Virus record (IMG/VR): IMGVR_UViG_3300035494_000146
DNA: 64,000 nt
Strand: one strand, 5' to 3'
DNA from: a virus
The position numbers and the translations under genes were made by a program. Positions 28,094-50,460 of the stretch are shown here, one piece after another. A model generated the notes under the pieces. The model was not told the origin of the DNA. It did not search any database and worked only from the letters and a program-made list of their open reading frames with translations. Numbering within the stretch: position 1 is the stretch's first letter; the number at the start of each line of letters is the position of its first letter.

Positions 28094-28801
28094 ATGCAAT
28101 CGCAAGATGTGTTAATTGACCTTGATTCCCTGCTCGACACCCGTATTGGTTTATTGCGGGCCCGATTTCCCTCGCGCGTACCCACGGTTGATATGGCAGC
28201 ATATGTCAACCGCTATAAAGACAATTTGCCTGAATTATTTGGCGTAAATAAAAATGAATGGGATTCGGCCTGGGCAGAGCGGGACCTCAGCGTGATTAAG
28301 TCATCACACGCTACCGTGTTTGCAAAAACCTTAGGGCGTCTCCTAGCGCCACATAAGGTCCGTGGCGACGTTTCTCCAATACATGACCGGTTACACCTAT
28401 TCATTAACTACTGGCCGTACAGACTCACTGAGGAGCTTCAGGACGAGTTTGTGGCGGCTATTAGCGAACTGGCTATCGAAGGTACGTTAGTGTCCATGGT
28501 GTCACACCCCGTGACTGAGTTAACGCCCAAACTGGTTGGCGATCGCTATAGCGCCATGATCATGTATAATGCTATCCCGTGGATGGACGCACAAAAAGAA
28601 GCGTTAGCGTCACACCGCATTCCGCGGGTGACGCTGTATACGCAAGGGGTTATTATCGATGATGACCCTGAACTGCTAGCCCACATTGAACGGGAATCGA
28701 TCGACCCGTTCGTTCGGGTGAAGCAACAACTGGCGGAATACTTCAGCCTGCATTGGTGGAAGCCGAGTTATTTCAGTCTTCCGTTATCCCCTTCAGCTTA
28801 G
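28094..28801 (+). CDS. Conserved hypothetical protein with HAD-like N-terminus
   Basis: VLIDLDSLLDTR resembles HAD motif I; start ATG 28094 after GGAG. Confidence 0.55.
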   Translation: MQSQDVLIDLDSLLDTRIGLLRARFPSRVPTVDMAAYVNRYKDNLPELFGVNKNEWDSAWAERDLSVIKSSHATVFAKTLGRLLAPHKVRGDVSPIHDRLHLFINYWPYRLTEELQDEFVAAISELAIEGTLVSMVSHPVTELTPKLVGDRYSAMIMYNAIPWMDAQKEALASHRIPRVTLYTQGVIIDDDPELLAHIERESIDPFVRVKQQLAEYFSLHWWKPSYFSLPLSPSA

Positions 28802-42500: not shown

Positions 42501-43696
42501 GTGTTCAGGATCTCCGGCAAGTTAGTGAGATTATAACGTGCGCGACGACCAAAGCTAGCCAGCGCTTCATTACCCTCACCCTGCTCGCGCAGCTTCTCCT
42601 GAATCTTGCGAATATGTGGCTGGATATATTTCCTGGCAAGCATGCCGCCAGCCATACCAGCGCCGGTTTGTGCTGCCTTAAGTCGTTTCTGGGCAGGTGA
42701 CAAATGTGAATCGTCTTCTGACGAGTCATCCCCCATCATTCCGACCACACCACCCACCATGCTGATGTTGTCCCGCACACCACTGCCGAAATCACTGAGG
42801 GCGCGGCGGGCATTAGTGCCGAGTTGCGACAGGTAGGATCTCGCAAACTCAGCCGGCGACAATGCAGACAGTATCTTCCGCTTCAGCATTGCTTGACCAA
42901 TTTCCAAGAACTCTTCCTTGGCATAGTCAGGCAATGCGGTGTTGCGTACGATTGATTCTGAGGCCGGGACCAGCTTCTCCATACTGGATTTGGTGATGTC
43001 CAGCAGATCCGTCAAGGCGTAGTACTGCCGGTAGTTGATTTCCAGCATCTTCCTGCGGTAGTTGGTGGTGACAGTCTGGTACCCCACCATTGCATCCGTG
43101 TTGGCATGTACGCCGGCCAGCGATTCATGCAGACGGTTTTGCCGCAAGATGTCTGCTGACTCTTTCAGCTCATCCTCGGCCCGCTCTTTCAGTTTTTCCT
43201 TACGGGCCTCCTCTGACTTGACCTGGAAGGTGTCGCTAAGTGCGGCATCAATTGCCGCTTGACGCTCATCGACATGTGCATAGTTGCCAGTGCTGCTGTC
43301 GTCTTTGGTCCATTTTTCTACCCGCTTGGTGAGCGATTCCGGCAGGTACTGTTTGAGCATCGGCAGCGCTTCCCGCCCTGCCTTTTTCAGCTCTATCTTG
43401 GTCTGACGGAGTTGATCCTTCGCCTCCCGATACACCGCGGTGCCTTCGCTGGCGATGTTATCATATGCATCCGCCGCCACCGTGTAATCTTTGGGAAGTG
43501 AGTCCAGGATCAGCTTCCGACGTTTGCCCTCACCAGCAATCGTCGAGGCAGCACTCGTCACCGCCTTGGCGGGGATGGACATGACGGCTTCGCGACCGGA
43601 CGGTGGCGCCATTGACGGGGGCTCGAAGTCCGCATCGAAATCTAACTCATCGTCGAGATCCCAATCGTCGAGCTCCAAATCTTCTTTTTTTGCCAT
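36587..43696 (-). CDS. Tape-measure-like tail protein with lytic transglycosylase domain (phiKZ gp181-like), 2369 aa
   Basis: Very long helical ORF; hydrophobic Ala/Gly segments; SLT motifs AMMESSLNP, AKGLYQF, GAEYL, YLSHFLGPGGA at ~37330-37800; divergent from vRNAP beta' as in phiKZ-like phages. Confidence 0.88.
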   Translation of the reverse strand: MAKKEDLELDDWDLDDELDFDADFEPPSMAPPSGREAVMSIPAKAVTSAASTIAGEGKRRKLILDSLPKDYTVAADAYDNIASEGTAVYREAKDQLRQTKIELKKAGREALPMLKQYLPESLTKRVEKWTKDDSSTGNYAHVDERQAAIDAALSDTFQVKSEEARKEKLKERAEDELKESADILRQNRLHESLAGVHANTDAMVGYQTVTTNYRRKMLEINYRQYYALTDLLDITKSSMEKLVPASESIVRNTALPDYAKEEFLEIGQAMLKRKILSALSPAEFARSYLSQLGTNARRALSDFGSGVRDNISMVGGVVGMMGDDSSEDDSHLSPAQKRLKAAQTGAGMAGGMLARKYIQPHIRKIQEKLREQGEGNEALASFGRRARYNLTNLPEILNTYAKDNNYEGQHGWLGSLAALLQDIMPSYDGDTVGVTDVTGEELERAVPWSRRSDLTLNEVLPGWLSKIHGALTGVDEQYDHTTKQFVSTDVIRNRIRDTVGDQETREYVRQEIDRLVDIIDPDKELSAQDRTVLGRVLDEKIRKVESFDVRDLANSYDAYGSAGYNHDVMDLMTHFGQIEYDKPHQEKLNIEISDELRRLRESITPVQAAVDEMTGLYGHNAVANSGVLDQDLSLNKAMVDSYSNVADIHPASPEARARVAKVVEEVGKVILDPTVEVNIRDVTADVYQGVKDALYQSEPNLYMVLKDAMLAHRPPSTPLASTVVSVAQPKTEEDRDYTAEIYTGVRDALYYSDPNMYSVLSDVLYDRDRPNNLYTVIATACGELAKGNDQSDRGALESVVERIHAQLVANDISPQVDAILDLIEHMAISGIGTYEQPEGEKPGYFGKFGQHLRGTKDKTVDKVVSGYTWGREKLGKGKDWLKSKIGSPFKAIGALKDTVTDTVGSAWRGLTGTRDIYDDQGNVVLSGRILKMGQYFDADGKVIKTLKDIKGAIYDRDGNIVLSAEEVLRNASKYTYYTKQGWRKLSEMVGGGVGSAANRVVSIPKNVARFLKDQGGGVLNSLRTSGDIYVKGEDEPRLKRHLMLKGFYFDKKTGKVIRDVDDIGGPVVTGEGHEVISASELADPNFQLVDVNGEPFKSVVSKAVDKVGSVYRFGKRAVTGAVGFAADLLGAGAEGIRGFFKGFVTTEDVKGIKTVLTDIYELLDERLPGGSEKSEPEEKVAGDADGDGVRDNSFRDIFRRRREARAAAAEKNEVPNRPEDVDKKSPLGKILGALMGVGGFVADKFMGLMGTASTFFVTKVLGGLTDGFGKLAAKFAGWVATAMAGKQAADTVGEVLDTAGDIDLEREGRRRGGRRGRMRDGLRRGGNAAKNAAKRATSKVSEKMAQRAAAKAATQTASRAAAQTAARQAVIQGGRMAATAGVTAAASGISMAGVGSAVASGAAAVGSFLTAPVVLGAIAVGGLGYLAYRIATSEDNGPLDQIRFAQYGLEDYDDAKHDEVAKIRYLEAEVGKYVAYNKDGVASIRGFADETAIQVAAGFGVDVDNAEDLQAYEDWFYGRFCSVYLLWASRLRQLSPSSTMGELEKTVTDAKIRAEMAQRTLLPETHPVFNVMVSPFEPGWFGRDDLLSGTKVRGIHLDLLSDLKKKAEKAKDKVLASAEKDTTVVAIKSPAPTDSGSGSVVTVKKSANPNHDTDNKKSSTASVDEIMLDAASGNFRMGIIELSATEAVRMRAYGLTKLKTSKVLTLMALELDAHEHIVISRGIAKFKGSVEEFAKVHMPEFGSNYDDAEQQTAWRGWFTHRFLPILLKYLSVLNMHAPNARPFDIVESSTTPYLADVAKSLTWARVEIGGENVGVWSVMFNPWNDKDPINTDPKSTQGNIEFLESRKAAAELAEKTIDPNRPTAQVLTAGTNNRPRADSGSGTGPVVTAGSADQQRQQVSSAIDNAWNNRQVGGPGGNSGGPISSSGIPIGDISDPVDPNGAYAKIKLASHSRGDVAKMISEVSKATGMDENLMLTVAMMESSLNPNAGATTSSAKGLYQFLVGKDGKSGTWGEQLRAHANKYGIPSNASAFDPVANALLGAEYLRLGARTVGNLSPSGKATPVDLYLSHFLGPGGARTFLRGLKKHPDKSVLPEWQKQAKANTWVFYAGNRPRSYREVYMELQRRARNAFNSVSQYASVPGQKAIEPPMAPPSSPEAASVASASVSGNVVDTPAPNMGGGAMPSPAADSGLPESSTPEQREAVTVAKAKQDVRQVTAERNQGAVSTIIPSEAPSVGSSIAERTVGAMRKKVGDGPHRVDMERYETAVKDEVMTNTVAPAMNLSEVMASITRQQRAMAEATNGILNEQLLVQREMAATLLSIRDQLLKSSNAPKSPVAPPTVASSQGKVKAEPAVTHQRGVISMAREYF
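41411..41659 (-). repeat. Two diverged 84-nt (28-aa) repeats within the tape measure
   Basis: RDVTADVYQGVKDALYQSEPNLYMVLKD (41576-41659) vs RDYTAEIYTGVRDALYYSDPNMYSVLSD (41411-41494), 18/28 identical. Confidence 0.8.
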
Positions 43697-43718
43697 AACT
43701 ACCTCGGAAAAAATTAAT

Positions 43719-45155
43719 ATGGATTGGTTAACGTTTTATCTGCTCAATGTGGATAAGTCGGTAGTGTCTAAACTCCGGCCAGTGACCACCCTCGACACCT
43801 TCGAAGGTGCCACGAAAAACTTTCATTCAGAAGGTCTCTACTCCACCACCACTTTTGGTCCTGTAGGTAGCGAGCAGCGCGACCTGACATACTCGTACAT
43901 CGATGTTAACATCGACATTATCTCTCCGGCGATTGCCTTGACGCTGTTCGAACTGAAGCGCCTGTATAAAGAGGTGATGAGTGGGAAACGGTACGCGGTG
44001 TGGGACGAAAAAGAAAAGGACTTCCACCCGGCCGCCCCAGGCGACGCGGGGGCGGGGACAGGGTACAGTTTCTTTATCAGTAAATTTCACGACCTCACAC
44101 CGAAGGAAACCGCCAGCAACGACCGTAAGGAGTCGATTAACCTCCTTAACAAATTCCGATCGATCGCACTCGGCCGATACGTATTGGTAATGCCAGCCGG
44201 CTTGCGTGATTTGGAAGTTAAGCCAGACGGACAAGAACAAGAATACGACATCAACCCGTTGTATCGTAAACTGCTCTCTGTCAGTAAAACCATCCCCAAT
44301 GTCGGTAACAAAAACAACCCCCTGCTAGATAACGCCCGGTGGCGTCTGCAGGAAACGTTTTGTGAGATCTATAAGTACTTCTTCGAGTACCTGGATGGTA
44401 AGAAGGGCGGCATTCGTGGCAAGATGACCTCACGACGTATCTTTAACGGTACGAGAAACGTGATCTCCTCCATGGATGCCTCTAGTCCCGTGATGGACCG
44501 GGAAGACGAGATTCGTCCCACCGACACCCTGATGGGGATGTATCAGGGGATGAAGTCGTTGCTACCGGTGGCGATACACGCGGTCCGTACTCGCTACCTG
44601 CCACCAGTCGACGCAGGTAACGGGGCACTATACCTTATCGACCCGAAATCACTAAAACGCGACATGGTGATGGTGTCGCCGGAAGACTACGACCTGTACA
44701 CCACCGACGAGGGGGTGGAGAAGCTCATCACTGACTTCCACCACACAGAAGACAAACATCAACCGTTGAAGGTTGACGGCAGATACATCGCCCTGATCTA
44801 CGATGATGGTAAACAGTTCCGGGTATTTCACGATATTCAGGAATTCCCGGAGACACTTGATCGTTCGAAAGTGAGCGGCATCACGTACGCTGAGTTGCTG
44901 TATTTGAGCGGCTACGATAAGTGGAATGACTATTTCACCATGGTCACCCGCTACCCCGTAACTGGTCAGGGCAGTACGTACTCCTCTACTATAAGATTGA
45001 CCACCACTGCCAGAACCAAGATGAAGTGGGAGCTGGATGCGGACTGGGAAACACGAAAGACAAAACCGGCCATCGATTTCCCAGATCGTACCGTAACTGA
45101 ATTTGTTACCTCTATGGCACCACACCCGAGCAACCTGGTGGAACTCGGTGCTGAT
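43719..45155 (+). CDS. rpoC: Virion RNA polymerase beta' subunit (phiKZ gp180-like), exon 1
   Basis: VLVMPAGLRD, GKKGGIRGKMTSRRIFNGTRNVIS, RYP motifs of beta'; ends ...ELGAD before the intron; start ATG 43719. Confidence 0.9.
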
Positions 45156-45624
45156 TAACTGTATCTGTAAAAGATGCCCTAGTCCCACTGGGGAGTAATT
45201 CCTAGTTGGTAACCTCCTTAATTGCTGGAAGATGCTAAAGTCCAACACACAACAACGTGGTCCGAAAGGGCGAGCGTGATTGTAGCCGAAAGGCGGAAAA
45301 AAGTCAAACGTCTCGCCTTGGAGACGGGTTGGAATGACCTACGCTAACACATAACAAGCGACGGCTGAGAAGTCCTCGCGCTAAGGGTCGATGCAATGCT
45401 TAAATCAGCAGCTGATTCCCTAACGTCTATTGACCACGGGACGAGTTCAACGACTAACCGGTAGCGCGGTGTAGAGCAGCAAGCCAATGGCTGTTCGAAA
45501 TAGGAGGCCCCTCACCGAGGGTGATAAGATAGTCTAGTATCCACCTGTAATGGGTGGGAAGTTCGGGTCGTTGGGAAACGACTGTCGAGAACTGTGTCGG
45601 GGCTGCGTCCGACATGAATGCACG
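45156..45624 (+). ncRNA. Group I self-splicing intron (IA-like, ORF-less, 469 nt) in the vRNAP beta' catalytic motif
   Basis: Exon ends in U (GAT) and intron ends in G; P1 GAU|UA with UAGUC (45180-84) gives a U-G pair at the splice site; P2 hairpin 45187-45206 with GUAA loop; P AATTGCTGGAA 45220-30; Q AATCAGCAGC 45403-12; R GTTCAACGACTA 45445-56; P3 CCTCCT/AGGAGG; P7 GACTA/TAGTC (45530-34); removal restores GADFDGD. Confidence 0.95.
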
Positions 45625-45798
45625 TTCGATGGTGACACTGGATCTGGTGATTCCGTCTACACCGACGAAGCACTGGAAGAAAACCGCAAACAAATGCAAA
45701 AGGCATCGTTCTGGGTGAATGGTGACCGTCTAAAGATTGATGTCAACACCGACTTGATTGAACGTACCATGTTTAACCTGTTGGCTGACCCTGAATAA
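45625..45798 (+). CDS. rpoC: Virion RNA polymerase beta' subunit, exon 2 (FDGD...; spliced product ~536 aa)
   Basis: Begins TTC GAT GGT GAC = FDGD, completing the catalytic ADFDGD motif in frame. Confidence 0.92.
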   Translation, partial: FDGDTGSGDSVYTDEALEENRKQMQKASFWVNGDRLKIDVNTDLIERTMFNLLADPE

Positions 45799-45826
45799 TT
45801 CTTACCGATAGGCAAGGAAGGACAGA

Positions 45827-48800
45827 ATGTTACTTCGCAACTTTAACCGACAGTTTTCAGTGATTCGGGTCGAACAGTTCGGCAATCCACGTATCGCATC
45901 ACTGTCGAAGCTCGAACTACCCAGGGGTAGTATTCTGCACTACATCCCGACCGATGGGGTGTCTGAAATTGGCCCGCCGCAGAATCACCCGATTTTGGAG
46001 AAGGCGGAAAAACTGATTCAGGTTAACCACGTACTGCACCTGGCCGAACATGGCACTGTCGGCCGACCCCGTCGTGTGGAGACCGCCATTGCTCGCGACG
46101 TGATTCAATATCATCGGATCAACAAACGTCTGCGGATGATGCACAATACCAAATTGGTGGAGCGTGACGATCGGGTCATGATGGTGGAGAACTATGCTCC
46201 GTTGCGTCGGGTTTATCGTTACCCCGAAACGTTGATGTCGTGGTATGAGCGCTGGTACAACTTGTTCCTAACTGTGGTTACCCAGCTGGGCCACGACAGC
46301 TCTACTTTCCAACGACAGAACTACCTACTGTTGACCATTCCGACCAAGTTGCCGTCCATTGCTAAGTTGCGTAAGGCGGAGAAGCGACGCGACCTCAACA
46401 CCCTCGACAGTATGCGTGACGATAACGTACTGTTCTTCCTGGAACTATGGACTTGGTTTGGTCCTAACCGTGACCGCGGCATGTTGGGTAAACTCACGGC
46501 AGAGCAACTCAAGCGGATCAACGTGATCGTGTCGTTCAATGATCGATTCATCAACATGAACTTGGGTGAGTTGGATTTCTGGCGTAAAGGCGACACCGGT
46601 GGACGCATTGATCCTATCCAAATGCAGCGGCGTCTGTACAAGTCCATCATCCAACTAGCAACGGAGCAATTACCGGAAGAGGTGAAGTCCACCCAACCGG
46701 TGTCTGTACGTGAGGATGCTGATGGCGAGATCGTCGAGACCGAGCTGCTGGAAGACAGTGGTGAATTCGATCCGCCTGAACTTACTGATGGTGACGATCG
46801 CTCGGTTGAAGAGGAGATTGAAGCGTTTGATGAGCAGGTTGACCTTGACGAAGAGGAAGATTTTGAGATAGTCCAGACTACCGATGAGGTCGAGGTGGAG
46901 GATGTCAAACACACCACTATCACTATTGACAACGGCATCAAGCGAGAAAGCCTGCGTTATATCGAGGCCGGCCAACTGACCACCAAGGAATACCAGCGGA
47001 TGCTGGATCAGTCAGAAAGCTACAAGGCCATCCCTAACCCGTTTGGCGAGGGGACGCTGGCTGATATGCTGGAGGTCACGTCCGAGGAAGTGGCGTTGGA
47101 GGAAGAGTTGTTGCTCGAGGATCCGGTATTGTTGGATCCTGGTCTAGCGAAGAGTACAGTCACGAACCTCAACCGCAAATACATACAGAAAGTGCTGCCG
47201 AAAGACATTTGTAGTTCAATCATGGCTGTGCAGAAAATGGGCATAGTTGTCAATGACTACAAAGCCGAGGAAGTAGTGGACGCTGCCAACGGTCTGGTAT
47301 ACCACACCCTCAAAATCACTCCGGTGAAGGGTGAGTCGTCCACGATCCATTTCCCCACACCACTATTTGATGATGAAGGGTATTGGACAGCGAACGACGT
47401 GCGCTACACCATGAGGAGGCAGCGGGTCGACCTCCCTATTCGAAAGACTGCGCCAGACACCGTCGCACTCACTACATTCTACAATAAGAACTTCATTCGG
47501 CGTAGTGACAAGGTGGTGAATGATTGGCCCAAGTGGCTGACCAACAACATCATCACTGCAGGCATTGATGCCAGTAACCTGAGCGTGAGCGATTTGCGGT
47601 TTGCTAATGTTTTCGACCCTACTGTGGAGTTACCACGCGACTACACTTCCGTATCGCAGCGACTCTCCGGTTTCACCTCACAAGGCATCGTGTTTAACTT
47701 CGATTACAGCACGGTGGATAAAACCTTCGGTGTGGAGAAGGTGGCCGAACTGAAAGAGCAGAAGCTGGTACCTGTCGGTAAATCACGTGGCGCCACTTAC
47801 GTCATGGATCCGTTTAACATGATGTACAAGGAAGACGGCAAAGGCCTGACCGAAGTGGGGACTCTCGCAGAAGTGCTTGGCTTCGATATCAGCAAGGCGC
47901 CGAAAGAACACAGTGAACTGTCGATGATGGGGAAGGCAATTCCAACCGGGCTCGTGATTGCGTACTACTACGGGCTGGAGAGTGCGCTGAAGGAGTTCGG
48001 CGTCGACTATCGTCTGGCGGAAGCAGGTGAGCGTGTCAAGGCCGATGAAGGCGATCTGATAATTCCCTGCAGAGACGGTAAATACGTTATCACCTACGCA
48101 AACCAGGAGCAAGCACTGATCTTCAATGGTCTGCGTCATTACGTCAAGATCACGCGCGACTTCTCCATGGAAGACCTGAACCGTCAAGACGTGTATCTGA
48201 ACCTGATTCAGAAAGACGGGTTGACGGTTAGGTATCTGCTGGAGCTGGATCAGATGGACGCCATGTACGTGGATCCAATCAGTGAACGCATCTTGAAAAA
48301 GATGGGCGAACCGACCACGTTTAGGGGACTTATCCGACGTGCGAACGAAATGTTGACCTATGACCAACATCCGCACGAGACCGATATGGACAGCATGCAT
48401 ATCTACGGACATCAGCGCATTGCTGGGGCAGTGTATGGGCAGTTGGTTAAAGCAATTCGAGACTCCCGCAATAAACCAGGTAGTCGGAAGAAGATCATCT
48501 TACCGCCCAACCAAATCTGGAGCGCGATTGCACAAGACCCGTCGGTAATGCCGGCATCCGACTCCAACCCAATTCAGTCTATCAAAGAAGCTGATGTCGT
48601 GACTTTCGGCGGGACCGGCGGACGCTCTCGCAGATCGATGGTGAAGAGGACGCGGGTGTTCGGTAAGAACAACCTGGGAGTGATCTCCGGCGACAACGTT
48701 GACAGTGGTGACGTTGGCATTACCGAGTACCTGACTAACAACCCCATCTTTGATGATGTTGATGGGTTGATTAAACCGCTGGACCGTGACAACTTGGAGG

Positions 48801-48856
48801 TGAACCAATACCTGTCATTTTCTAACCAGTTAGCACCGGGCATTATGCACGACGAT
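45827..48856 (+). CDS. rpoB: Virion RNA polymerase beta subunit, N-terminal/main piece (phiKZ gp178-like), exon 1
   Basis: RRQRVDLPIRK, NPIQSIKEADVVTFGGTGGRS, GVISGDNVDSGDVG, PGIMHDD beta motifs; AAGGAAGG RBS. Confidence 0.9.
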
Positions 48857-49326
48857 GGACATAAACGTCGCCTCTACGAGTGATTGTGGAGTGATAACTT
48901 TCTTAATTGCTGGAACACCCTAAAGCTCAACTCGCTACAGCATGGTCCGAAAGGACGAGTGCGATACGCGGTCGAAAGACAGAAAAAAGTCAAAGGCTTC
49001 CTGAGGAGGCCAGTTGAGATGCCCTACGCTTAAAGGAGTGCCTGTCGGGAGACGCGCCGCTAAGGGGTTATGCAATGGACAATCGAGCAGCGAAGCTCCT
49101 ACCGGCGTCGGGAGACGCACCAAGGAGAACGTTCAACGACTAGAGGGGTCGCCCTCGTACTGGCCAAGTGGCTAGGAAAGAGAAAGCTCTCATCGTAGCG
49201 CATTAGGTGCGCTTGTTAAGGTGAGATGATAATATAGTCTGGACATCTGGGGAAACCCCAGAGCAGCGTCGCCGACCGGGAGGTCCGTGATAGCGGGAGT
49301 GATTAACGACCACTCTGAACATTTCG
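48857..49326 (+). ncRNA. Group I self-splicing intron (IA-like, ORF-less, 470 nt) in vRNAP beta
   Basis: Exon ends GAT; P1 CGAU|G with CGUCG (48866-70) gives a U-G pair; P AATTGCTGGAA 48905-15; Q AATCGAGCAGC 49081-91; R GTTCAACGACTA 49131-42; P3 CTTTCT/AGAAAG; P7 GACTA/TAGTC (49235-39); P9.0 GGA/UUC before terminal G 49326; removal gives HDD-GKRASF. Confidence 0.93.
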
Positions 49327-50460
49327 GGAAAACGAGCAAGCTTTGTTGGAATTCAGCATGGCTCAGGCATGTCTGCCAACGGATATGAAGTCACCGCATT
49401 CCGTACTGGGGCGGAGAAGTTAGTGGCCCACCGTACGGGGAGCAGTCAGGCAGTAGTGGCTGCAGAGTCCGGTAAAGTCGTCGAGATGGATGAGTATGGT
49501 ATTACCGTGGAATACGACACCAAGCCCAAGACCACTAAGTCATACCCTGTCGGAAAAACCTTCGGTCGACATGAGGGCGGGGTCTTCCCGCATGTGTTGG
49601 TTCCTAATGTTAAGGTTGGTCAGAAGTTCGCCAAGGGTGATGTACTGACCTACAACGAGAAGTTCTTCGAGGTCGATCCTGTTACGCCTAACCAGGTCAA
49701 CTGGAAAGCGGGAGTGATGGCTAACGTTGTCCTACTGGAAGGCACCGACACCCTTGAAGACTCCAGCGCGATCTCGCCAGCTTTGTCGGAGAAGCTAACC
49801 ACACAGATCTCCAAGGTGAAACATATCACGGTGCGTTTCGATCAAGCCATACATGACATGGTGAAGGAAGGTAAGAAGCTGACCCCCGACACTGTACTCT
49901 GCGTGATCGAAGATGCGGTCTCTGCTGGTATGCAAGGCTTCAGCGATAAATCCATTGAAACGCTACGTAAGTTGGCAGCTAAGGCACCTCGCGCCAAGCT
50001 CAACGGGGTGGTGGATCGTATCGAGATCTTCTACCACGGCGATTATGAAGACATGTCGGAATCCGTTCGGGCACTAGCAGAGTGGGGCGATCGTAAGCGT
50101 AGGCGGGAAGCCAAACGCAGTCCCAAACGGCTGGCGGAGCATGGTCGGGTTGACAGCTCTCTGCGGATTGAAGGTAATCCTGTAGAGCTGGAGACTATGG
50201 TCATCCGTCTGTATATGACGCAGGAAGTGCCGGCCATTGGTGGCGACAAGGCCGTGTTTGCCAACCAGTTGAAATCAACCTTTCGACGCGTCATGGTTGG
50301 CGTTAATGAAACCGAAACGGGTCTACCTATTGACGCCATCTTTGGACGCAAATCGGTCGATGCGCGGATCGTGTTGTCAGTGTACCAGATCGGCACCACG
50401 AACAAGGTTTGTCAACTGATCTCTGAGGGCGCACAAGCGATTCTGAAAGAGGGCGGTTGA
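49327..50460 (+). CDS. rpoB: Virion RNA polymerase beta subunit, exon 2 (spliced product ~1387 aa)
   Basis: Frame open upstream of ATG 49369 to GKRASFVGIQH; contains LEDSSAIS and GDKAVFANQLKSTF...PIDAIFG (beta GDK...HGNKG-equivalent). Confidence 0.9.
   Translation, partial: GKRASFVGIQHGSGMSANGYEVTAFRTGAEKLVAHRTGSSQAVVAAESGKVVEMDEYGITVEYDTKPKTTKSYPVGKTFGRHEGGVFPHVLVPNVKVGQKFAKGDVLTYNEKFFEVDPVTPNQVNWKAGVMANVVLLEGTDTLEDSSAISPALSEKLTTQISKVKHITVRFDQAIHDMVKEGKKLTPDTVLCVIEDAVSAGMQGFSDKSIETLRKLAAKAPRAKLNGVVDRIEIFYHGDYEDMSESVRALAEWGDRKRRREAKRSPKRLAEHGRVDSSLRIEGNPVELETMVIRLYMTQEVPAIGGDKAVFANQLKSTFRRVMVGVNETETGLPIDAIFGRKSVDARIVLSVYQIGTTNKVCQLISEGAQAILKEGG

Follow-up and report, generated by a model that had tools for sequence, protein, structure and literature searches.

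A predicted endonuclease-free group I intron within the catalytic loop of a jumbo-phage virion RNA polymerase beta' gene

How does a jumbo phage make a subunit of its virion RNA polymerase (vRNAP) when 469 nt that open with an in-frame stop codon lie among the codons of the catalytic loop? The question arises at positions 45156-45624 of the window, the 64,000-nucleotide stretch of DNA analysed here, where an earlier note made from the letters alone had placed a group I intron. Our analysis indicates that the insertion, which interrupts the codons of the (G)ADFDGD loop in the beta'-N gene, is very likely a functional group I intron without an endonuclease, with a splicing activity that we infer from the sequence and from its comparison with relatives.

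A virion RNA polymerase gene in two pieces

The window is part of a 174-kb IMG/VR viral record (completeness ~75%), and the same DNA was found in tar-pit and hydrocarbon metagenome runs. By protein identity, the nearest cultured relatives are the Vibrio phages pVp-JHP1101 (73%) and pVa-21 (72%), followed by the SPN3US, CR5 and phiEaH2 group, and the phage carrying the insertion is an uncultured pVa-21/SPN3US-like jumbo phage of tar-pit metagenomes. A megablast search of the region against the phage collection gave no match. The features of the interrupted gene, and a second intron to which we refer below, are as follows (a slash within a motif marks the insertion point).

43719..45155, + strand: exon 1 of vRNAP beta'-N, 479 codons, from MDWLTF... 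to ...LGAD
45156..45624, + strand: ORF-less group I intron, 469 nt, phase 0, beginning with an in-frame TAA and ending with omega-G
45625..45798, + strand: exon 2, 57 codons plus stop, FDGDTGSGDSVY...LLADPE, matching residues 480-537 by tblastn and PHROG 2986 positions 485-538
48857..49326, + strand: second ORF-less group I intron, in the vRNAP beta gene at HDD/GKR, Rfam 50.5 bits, same family

The borders proposed in the earlier note held in full. Exon 1 ends ...GGT GCT GAT at 45155 and is followed by the TAA at 45156-45158, while exon 2 starts TTC GAT GGT GAC at 45625, making G45624 the last base of the insert; the catalytic DFDGD motif is therefore split as GAD/FDGD, in phase 0, at the boundary between its first Asp and the Phe. 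The 537-aa protein of pVp-JHP1101 is uninterrupted here and reads ...LTADFDGDTSSGDSVY..., and in tblastn its residues 1-479 match 43719-45155 (73% identity) and its residues 480-537 match 45625-45795, with no loss and no duplication. The same contiguity over the junction is seen with PHROG 2986, to which exon 1 aligns at positions 8-484 (E 6e-193) and exon 2 at positions 485-538, and the gene is in one piece with an identical junction in three intron-free relatives (L001, L002 and L007). Removal of the intron thus gives an unbroken frame that is colinear with the intron-free homologues. Shifting the borders by +1 leaves the joined sequence the same, but the insert then ends in T and its terminal G is lost, so that 45156-45624 is the sole placement with both U(-1) and omega-G.

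Identifying the gene product called for a profile. A Pfam search with the exons returned nothing, and phmmer with a full-length homologue found no match in the PDB, whereas a profile built from 23 intact homologues matches the AR9 nvRNAP beta' subunit (7S00_d, E 7e-13) as well as plastid/cyanobacterial beta'/gamma and bacterial beta' subunits. In this profile search the LGADFDGDT (GADFDGD) stretch aligns with the catalytic loop of beta' subunits, and D480, D482, G483 and D484 are invariant among the 23 homologues. The earlier note had remarked on a motif reading GADFDGD rather than NADFDGD; the G is correct, but it is no peculiarity, since the residue preceding ADFDGD is G, T, V, N, Q or A across the homologue alignment and GADFDGD is therefore ordinary for the beta'-N family.

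The beta'-N protein also matches PHIKZ180 and PhiPA3 gp212 in tblastn, and the gene order is kept, beta'-N having an oppositely oriented gene for a giant SLT virion protein upstream of it and beta directly downstream. In SPN3US, both gp240 (beta'-N) and gp241 (beta-N) were detected in virions by mass spectrometry (PMC5105663), and the sequence record of phiKZ annotates gp180 as a structural head protein. These comparisons support the view, already put forward in the earlier note on the motif, that the split gene encodes a vRNAP beta' subunit, namely the jumbo-phage beta'-N subunit homologous to SPN3US gp240 and phiKZ gp180. Its place in the virion is likewise supported by the homology to PHIKZ180 and PhiPA3 gp212, the SPN3US virion mass spectrometry and the conserved gene order. 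We infer that the gene pair corresponds to SPN3US gp240/gp241, taking length, gene order and the 56-57% identity to SPN3US-like phages together rather than gene by gene.

The insertion misleads gene calling. The mechanical ORF begins with a TTG at 43491, which lies 76 codons upstream of the conserved ATG (MDWLTF) and is too far upstream for exon 1 of beta'-N, and an 82-codon ORF at 45550-45798 that begins inside the intron's P9 and runs on into exon 2 is spurious. Automatic callers thus deliver a truncated 479-aa product and a spurious 82-aa ORF, so that the model of this gene, which encodes an essential virion enzyme, has to be corrected.

Architecture and conservation of the predicted ribozyme

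The Rfam group I model RF00028 matches 45171-45557 over its full length with 32.2 bits (E 3.5e-6 in a 1-kb search), a score below the curated gathering cut-off of 50. The shortfall is explained by two large insertions, one of ~120 nt within P5 and one of 42 nt following P7, and not by missing core elements; same-site relatives that do not have the P5 extension score 76-92 bits. Helices were derived by comparison with relatives, from the Rfam alignment and with RNAalifold, and column numbers below are those of the alignment.

45153..45157, + strand: 5' strand of P1, exon GAU plus intron UA, splice site after U45155; partner 45180-45184
45180..45184, + strand: internal guide sequence UAGUC, with G45182 in a wobble pair with U45155
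45188..45205, + strand: P2 hairpin, CUGGGGA with UUCCUAG (45188-94 with 45199-205), GUAA tetraloop; compensatory pairs
45213..45218, + strand: 5' strand of P3, CCUCCU, pairing with AGGAGG 45502-45507; columns 33-38 with 336-341
45223..45228, + strand: 5' strand of P4, UGCUGG, pairing with UCAGCA 45405-45410 (Rfam alignment, RNAalifold)
45229..45404, + strand: J4/5, short P5 and large P5 extension with GNRA-capped hairpins and an A-rich GAAAAAAGU stretch
45411..45445, + strand: P6, P6a and small P6b, UCCC 45417-20 with GGGA 45438-41; columns 244-247 with 272-275, three compensatory cells
45452..45456, + strand: 5' strand of P7, GACUA, pairing with UAGUC 45530-45534; guanosine-binding helix, in a pseudoknot with P3
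45457..45496, + strand: P7.1 (ACCG with CGGU) and P7.2 (GAGCAGC with GCUGUUC); columns 291-304 and 308-330, compensatory changes in both
45502..45507, + strand: 3' strand of P3, AGGAGG
45509..45521, + strand: P8 hairpin, CCCUC with GAGGG; columns 343-346 with 373-376
45530..45538, + strand: 3' strand of P7, UAGUC, and J7/9; G45537 U45538 form the 5' strand of P9.0
45541..45614, + strand: P9 (45541-45 with 45553-57), P9.1 (45561-64 with 45589-92, enclosing another hairpin) and P9.2 (45595-600 with 45609-14)
45622..45624, + strand: 3' strand of P9.0 (A45622 C45623) and omega-G (G45624)

Every element listed in the earlier note (P1 with a U-G pair, P3, P4, P7, P9.0 and the terminal G) could be located in this way. 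Its assignment to the group I class is likewise borne out by the full RF00028 alignment, the catalytic core P3-P4-P6-P7-P8, the P3/P7 pseudoknot, the U-G pair of P1 and the omega-G. P7.1 and P7.2 are peripheral helices typical of subgroup IA, and by these helices the architecture appears IA-like, with a large P5 extension that is atypical of IA2. P1 is just 5 bp long and includes three A-U or G-U pairs, P5 is a weak helix of 2-3 pairs, and there is essentially no P10, a combination that suggests that efficient splicing might need help. An alternative 9-bp P1 between the exon end and UAGUUGGUA at 45203-45211 was rejected because it overlaps the 3' strand of P2 and because the guide of the relatives always lies 5' of P2. 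The folding energy of the single sequence is not unusual (z = -1.5).

Covariation was assessed with RNAalifold on four introns at the same site (this one, L068, L074 and L070), a set that replaced MAFFT plus RNAalifold on 47 diverse family members, whose alignment was too gappy (739 columns) and recovered only P4, P6 and P7. With the four introns, 35 of the 93 predicted pairs show compensatory two-sided changes, the covariation term is -14.4 kcal/mol, and P2, P3, P4, P6a, P7.1, P7.2, P8, P9, P9.1 and P9.2 are all recovered. In P3, two of the four sequences carry double-sided changes at two pairs, with more variants in L071, L073 and the second intron, and the P2 helix is retained with wholly different sequences in the same three. 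Compensatory changes also mark the P5 extension (columns 61-67 with 147-153, 75-83 with 88-97 and 105-107 with 112-114), a domain that is present in the second intron as well, and the P9 region relative to L068, L074 and L070 (columns 396-401 with 423-428 and 472-479 with 486-493). P9.0 covaries, pairing GU with AC here, UU with AA in L071, GG with CC in L073 and GA with UC in the second intron. P7, by comparison, fits the Rfam consensus GUUCAACGACUA ... AUAGUCU and is invariant in the 60 viral contigs found by this motif, and each of the eight introns compared ends in G. The guide AGUC lies 3-4 nt upstream of P2 and is conserved in all same-site introns, while the paralogous intron at 48857 sits at a different exon sequence, CGAU/G, and has its own matching guide, CGUCG, so that P1 covaries with its context.

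The rate of change points the same way. The intron is 84-87% identical to its closest orthologue, that of L068, while exon 1 is 74% identical (84%, 92% and 47% at first, second and third codon positions). The excess of intron identity over the 47% at third positions means either that the intron is constrained much more tightly than silent sites or that it was exchanged more recently than the gene, and either would fit an active ribozyme. As judged by the 92% identity at second positions, the exons are intact and under purifying selection.

Related introns and the missing endonuclease gene

Interruption at this point is not peculiar to one phage. A protein search with exon 1 gave 1708 homologues in all, and thirteen of the 120 best homologue clusters listed, the window's own protein included, stop exactly at ...AD (...GD in P0119), so that the site is filled in roughly one in nine of the nearest metagenomic clusters; the thirteen span 84% down to 42% identity, and one further cluster ends ...GADF. 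Seven contigs were fetched, of which L072 is cut off inside the intron and L069 ends 84 bases past the exon, and all five with complete DNA carry an intron at the same point (539 nt in L068, 420 in L074, 353 in L071, 373 in L073 and 1508 in L070). The 5' border reads GAT/TAA in each of the six same-site metagenomic introns that could be read (L068, L070, L071, L072, L073 and L074), and 3' ends, where read, have a G before TT(C/T)GA. Same-site introns score 92.2 (phiKZ), 85.5 (L071), 76.5 (L073), 43.6 (L074), 43.1 (L070) and 33.5 (L068) bits with RF00028. A string search with P4 and P7 yielded 60 viral contigs with the same spacing, and the members checked are group I introns by Rfam. In phiKZ, T2P, OMKO1, Goslar, PDCC-1 and others the tblastn match over the junction stops at the D of GAD, and at least 80% of the query is found in one piece in only 243 of 293 records. 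Going by these alignments, the AD/FDGD intron is already known in kind, with phiKZ and many relatives occupied at the identical site, and the AD/FDGD codons of jumbo-phage vRNAP beta' are a widely occupied homing site (phiKZ, Goslar, PDCC-1). A literature search found no paper joining a group I intron with DFDGD.

The closest named counterpart is phiKZ gp180/gp179 (AF399011), in which the insertion point is identical: PHIKZ180 ends ...GAD (...GCGGAT), followed by the intron's TAA, PHIKZ179 (HNH), the 92.2-bit core, ...AACG and an exon 2 reading FDGDTVSF.... The phiKZ intron belongs to the same family (guide AGUCC; AATTGCTGG, GTTCAACGACTA and ATAGTC in the core), and its gene order of SLT giant protein, beta'-N and beta is also the same. 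It is, however, 1443 nt long, because the gene for gp179, an HNH endonuclease, is inserted downstream of the 5' splice site and ahead of the guide, whereas the window intron has 469 nt, no ORF and a large P5 extension. As cited in PMC10914365 and PMC11512511, prediction of the gp180 intron goes back to the 2002 paper on the phiKZ genome, and the predicted phiKZ introns given there involve gp56, gp72, gp179 and the RNAP subunits gp55 and gp180. Escherichia phage Goslar has a similar layout, with a beta'-N match (Goslar_00231) that stops at the D of GAD, an ORF179-like Goslar_00230 and beta next, and its record already annotates the intron RNA (ncRNA 'Intron_gpI', Goslar_00229). Photobacterium phage PDCC-1 shows the same layout again, with a 416-aa ORF after GAD, then an RNA core, then beta. 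Both differ from the window in having an ORF in the intron, in their hosts and phage genera, and in a protein that is just ~30-45% identical.

The earlier note had compared the intron with that of phiPA3. That comparison stands insofar as the intron of PhiPA3 gp210 also belongs to group I and interrupts an active-site motif of a chimallivirus vRNAP gene, and its 3' core is 72% identical to the window intron over 133 nt. Its position, however, is behind the conserved DD of the beta gene, gp211/gp209 (Birkholz et al. 2024, Science; PMC11620839), which differs from the AD/FDGD site and is instead the site of the window's second intron (48857-49326); the proper comparator is phiKZ gp180/gp179. PhiPA3 gp210 itself is a nicking HNH endonuclease that acts in phage-phage competition against phiKZ (PMC11620839). 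The T4 td, nrdB and sunY, Twort and SPO1 DNA polymerase introns have the same P1-P9 core, P7.1/P7.2 and splice-site U-G, and these classical IA phage introns, some of which encode an endonuclease while others do not, are likewise inserted where essential genes encode conserved catalytic sites (PMC12908238); they differ in host genes and sequence family, and we liken them here by description only.

As the earlier note had stated, the window intron has no homing endonuclease ORF, the longest open stretch in all six frames being 61 codons. In its relatives, a single place in the P1 loop, between the 5' splice site and the guide, holds a 324-aa ORF with weak HNH_3/NUMOD-like matches (L070), a 328-aa ORF (a contig of P0011) or a 69-nt insertion (L068). 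The presence of ORFs or an insertion at that place suggests that the ORF-less state is probably a loss of the endonuclease rather than an original absence, in a comparison that is unrooted. According to this view, the intron lineage would home into the AD/FDGD site by means of an HNH endonuclease encoded in the P1 loop (phiKZ gp179, Goslar, PDCC-1, L070), and the window copy and L068 would have lost the gene or never had it. Having no endonuclease gene, the window copy is probably immobile and inherited with its host gene. Endonuclease-bearing and endonuclease-free forms of one lineage document the gain-and-loss cycle of homing introns, and the series provides natural substrates for the study of intron-based phage competition.

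An intron of the same family lies at ~2920-3420 of L058 (IMGVR_UViG_3300004097_000040), with P2 and J2/3 sequence in common (GGGAGTAATTCCTAGTTGGT). It carries a LAGLIDADG-type ORF (motif GFVAGMILGDGHLS) after P7 and no HNH gene in P1, so that one ribozyme lineage is associated with different endonuclease families.

The second intron of the window shows up as a tblastn gap between 48856 and 49330, and its site coincides with that of the PhiPA3 gp210 intron and with the one targeted in phiKZ gp178 (D1072). A third ORF-less group I intron (Rfam 51.4 bits) lies outside the window at ~28190-28700 of G000:C1 (~1376-1886 of L004), where it splits a DNA polymerase gene between PHROG 3011 positions 30-468 and 469-568. 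In its 3' part (GGACATCTGGGGAAACCCCAGAGCAGCGTCGCCGACCGGGAGGTCCG) it hardly differs from the 48857 intron, which suggests recent exchange between introns within the genome. Over 49148-49374 the contig depth is tripled (45.6 as against 15.3), and at 49254-49258 several assemblies come to an end, their loose ends running on into other sequences. The repeat shared with the DNA-polymerase intron is the apparent cause, and assemblies of this phage are fragile at its introns. Further insertions nearby include a second Rfam-positive intron in the beta gene of L071 (7521-7936, 46.7 bits), a DUF723-type ORF after a 554-aa beta fragment in L070 (from 8335) and a LAGLIDADG ORF downstream of the beta'-N gene in the P0011 contig. 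Introns are thus concentrated in the beta'-N/beta pair, a hot spot for their insertion.

One doubtful idea is that the endonuclease-free introns persist not just for want of a clean way to lose them but because they act as immunity alleles at the AD/FDGD, HDD/GKR and DNA-polymerase sites. If so, their occupancy would destroy the recognition sequences of the HNH enzymes of co-infecting relatives (gp179- and gp210-type) and protect essential genes from nicking-based interference of the PhiPA3-versus-phiKZ type, and the present phage, whose three "disarmed" introns all come from one family, would represent a resistant genotype in an intron arms race.

Predicted splicing and its alternatives

Should the intron behave as others of its class do, the GAU at the exon end of the pre-mRNA would pair with the guide UAGUC as P1, the U45155-G45182 wobble marking the splice site, and a free guanosine bound in P7 would attack after U45155. 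G45624, placed by P9.0, would then enter the same site, and the exons would be joined as ...LGAD-FDGDTG.... On unspliced RNA, translation would stop at the opening TAA, and the resulting 479-aa product would contain a single catalytic Asp instead of three; splicing would thus be necessary for infective virions. The finding leaves the known working of such introns unchanged.

That the insertion is instead an assembly artefact or chimera is scarcely credible. Intron repeats do confuse assemblers in this phage, as seen from the breaks at ~49254-49258 in the neighbouring intron, where the depth is tripled. Nevertheless, single contigs span both borders of the 45156-45624 insertion with no differences (X1 record 1, 43700-49254; X4 record 6, 43700-45753), a hydrocarbon-metagenome contig from 2013 covers the 5' border, and the orthologous intron occupies the same place in an unrelated run (L068). 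The intron-containing junction is present without differences in the DNA contigs of five samples (four tar-pit and one older hydrocarbon), and no intron-free joint was seen among the source-sample DNA contigs, although contigs cannot prove its absence. We also consider it very improbable that the ribozyme is dead, whether because the gene is a pseudogene or because the two exons are translated apart, exon 2 from the ATG at 45550, and reassembled. The 82-codon ORF is indeed in frame with exon 2, but its ATG lies inside the P9 hairpin without a Shine-Dalgarno sequence, and a cut at this point would split the metal-binding loop. Moreover, an intron more constrained than silent sites and rich in compensatory changes, flanked by exons under purifying selection, argues against decay, and the same arrangement exists in the viable cultured phages phiKZ, Goslar and PDCC-1.

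The reading of a functional intron can be modified rather than replaced by supposing that splicing is non-autonomous or non-constitutive, with a protein or translation-coupled helper or with the intron as a timing gate on vRNAP production. The 5-bp P1 with its three A-U or G-U pairs, the weak P5 and the unconvincing P10 lend some weight to this possibility, as does the presence in one genome of three ORF-less introns of the same family in essential genes (beta'-N, beta and DNA polymerase). A short P1 is a common feature of group I introns in phages, however, and this counts against a helper or timing role. The full catalytic core is present and conserved, and the sequence gives no pointer to a regulator. 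On balance we find it quite unlikely, while noting that a long-read transcriptome study reported no spliced reads for the phiKZ introns under its conditions (PMC10914365).

This phage was found in DNA runs only. The RNA runs listed contained just 4-6% of the words, and the matching contigs of one of them, X6, are less than 90% identical, come from other introns and are without the spliced joint. X6 is a gut metatranscriptome, and its contigs are 80-90% identical to both intron cores (45171-45565 and 48966-49142), so that related introns are present in RNA libraries of a quite different habitat.
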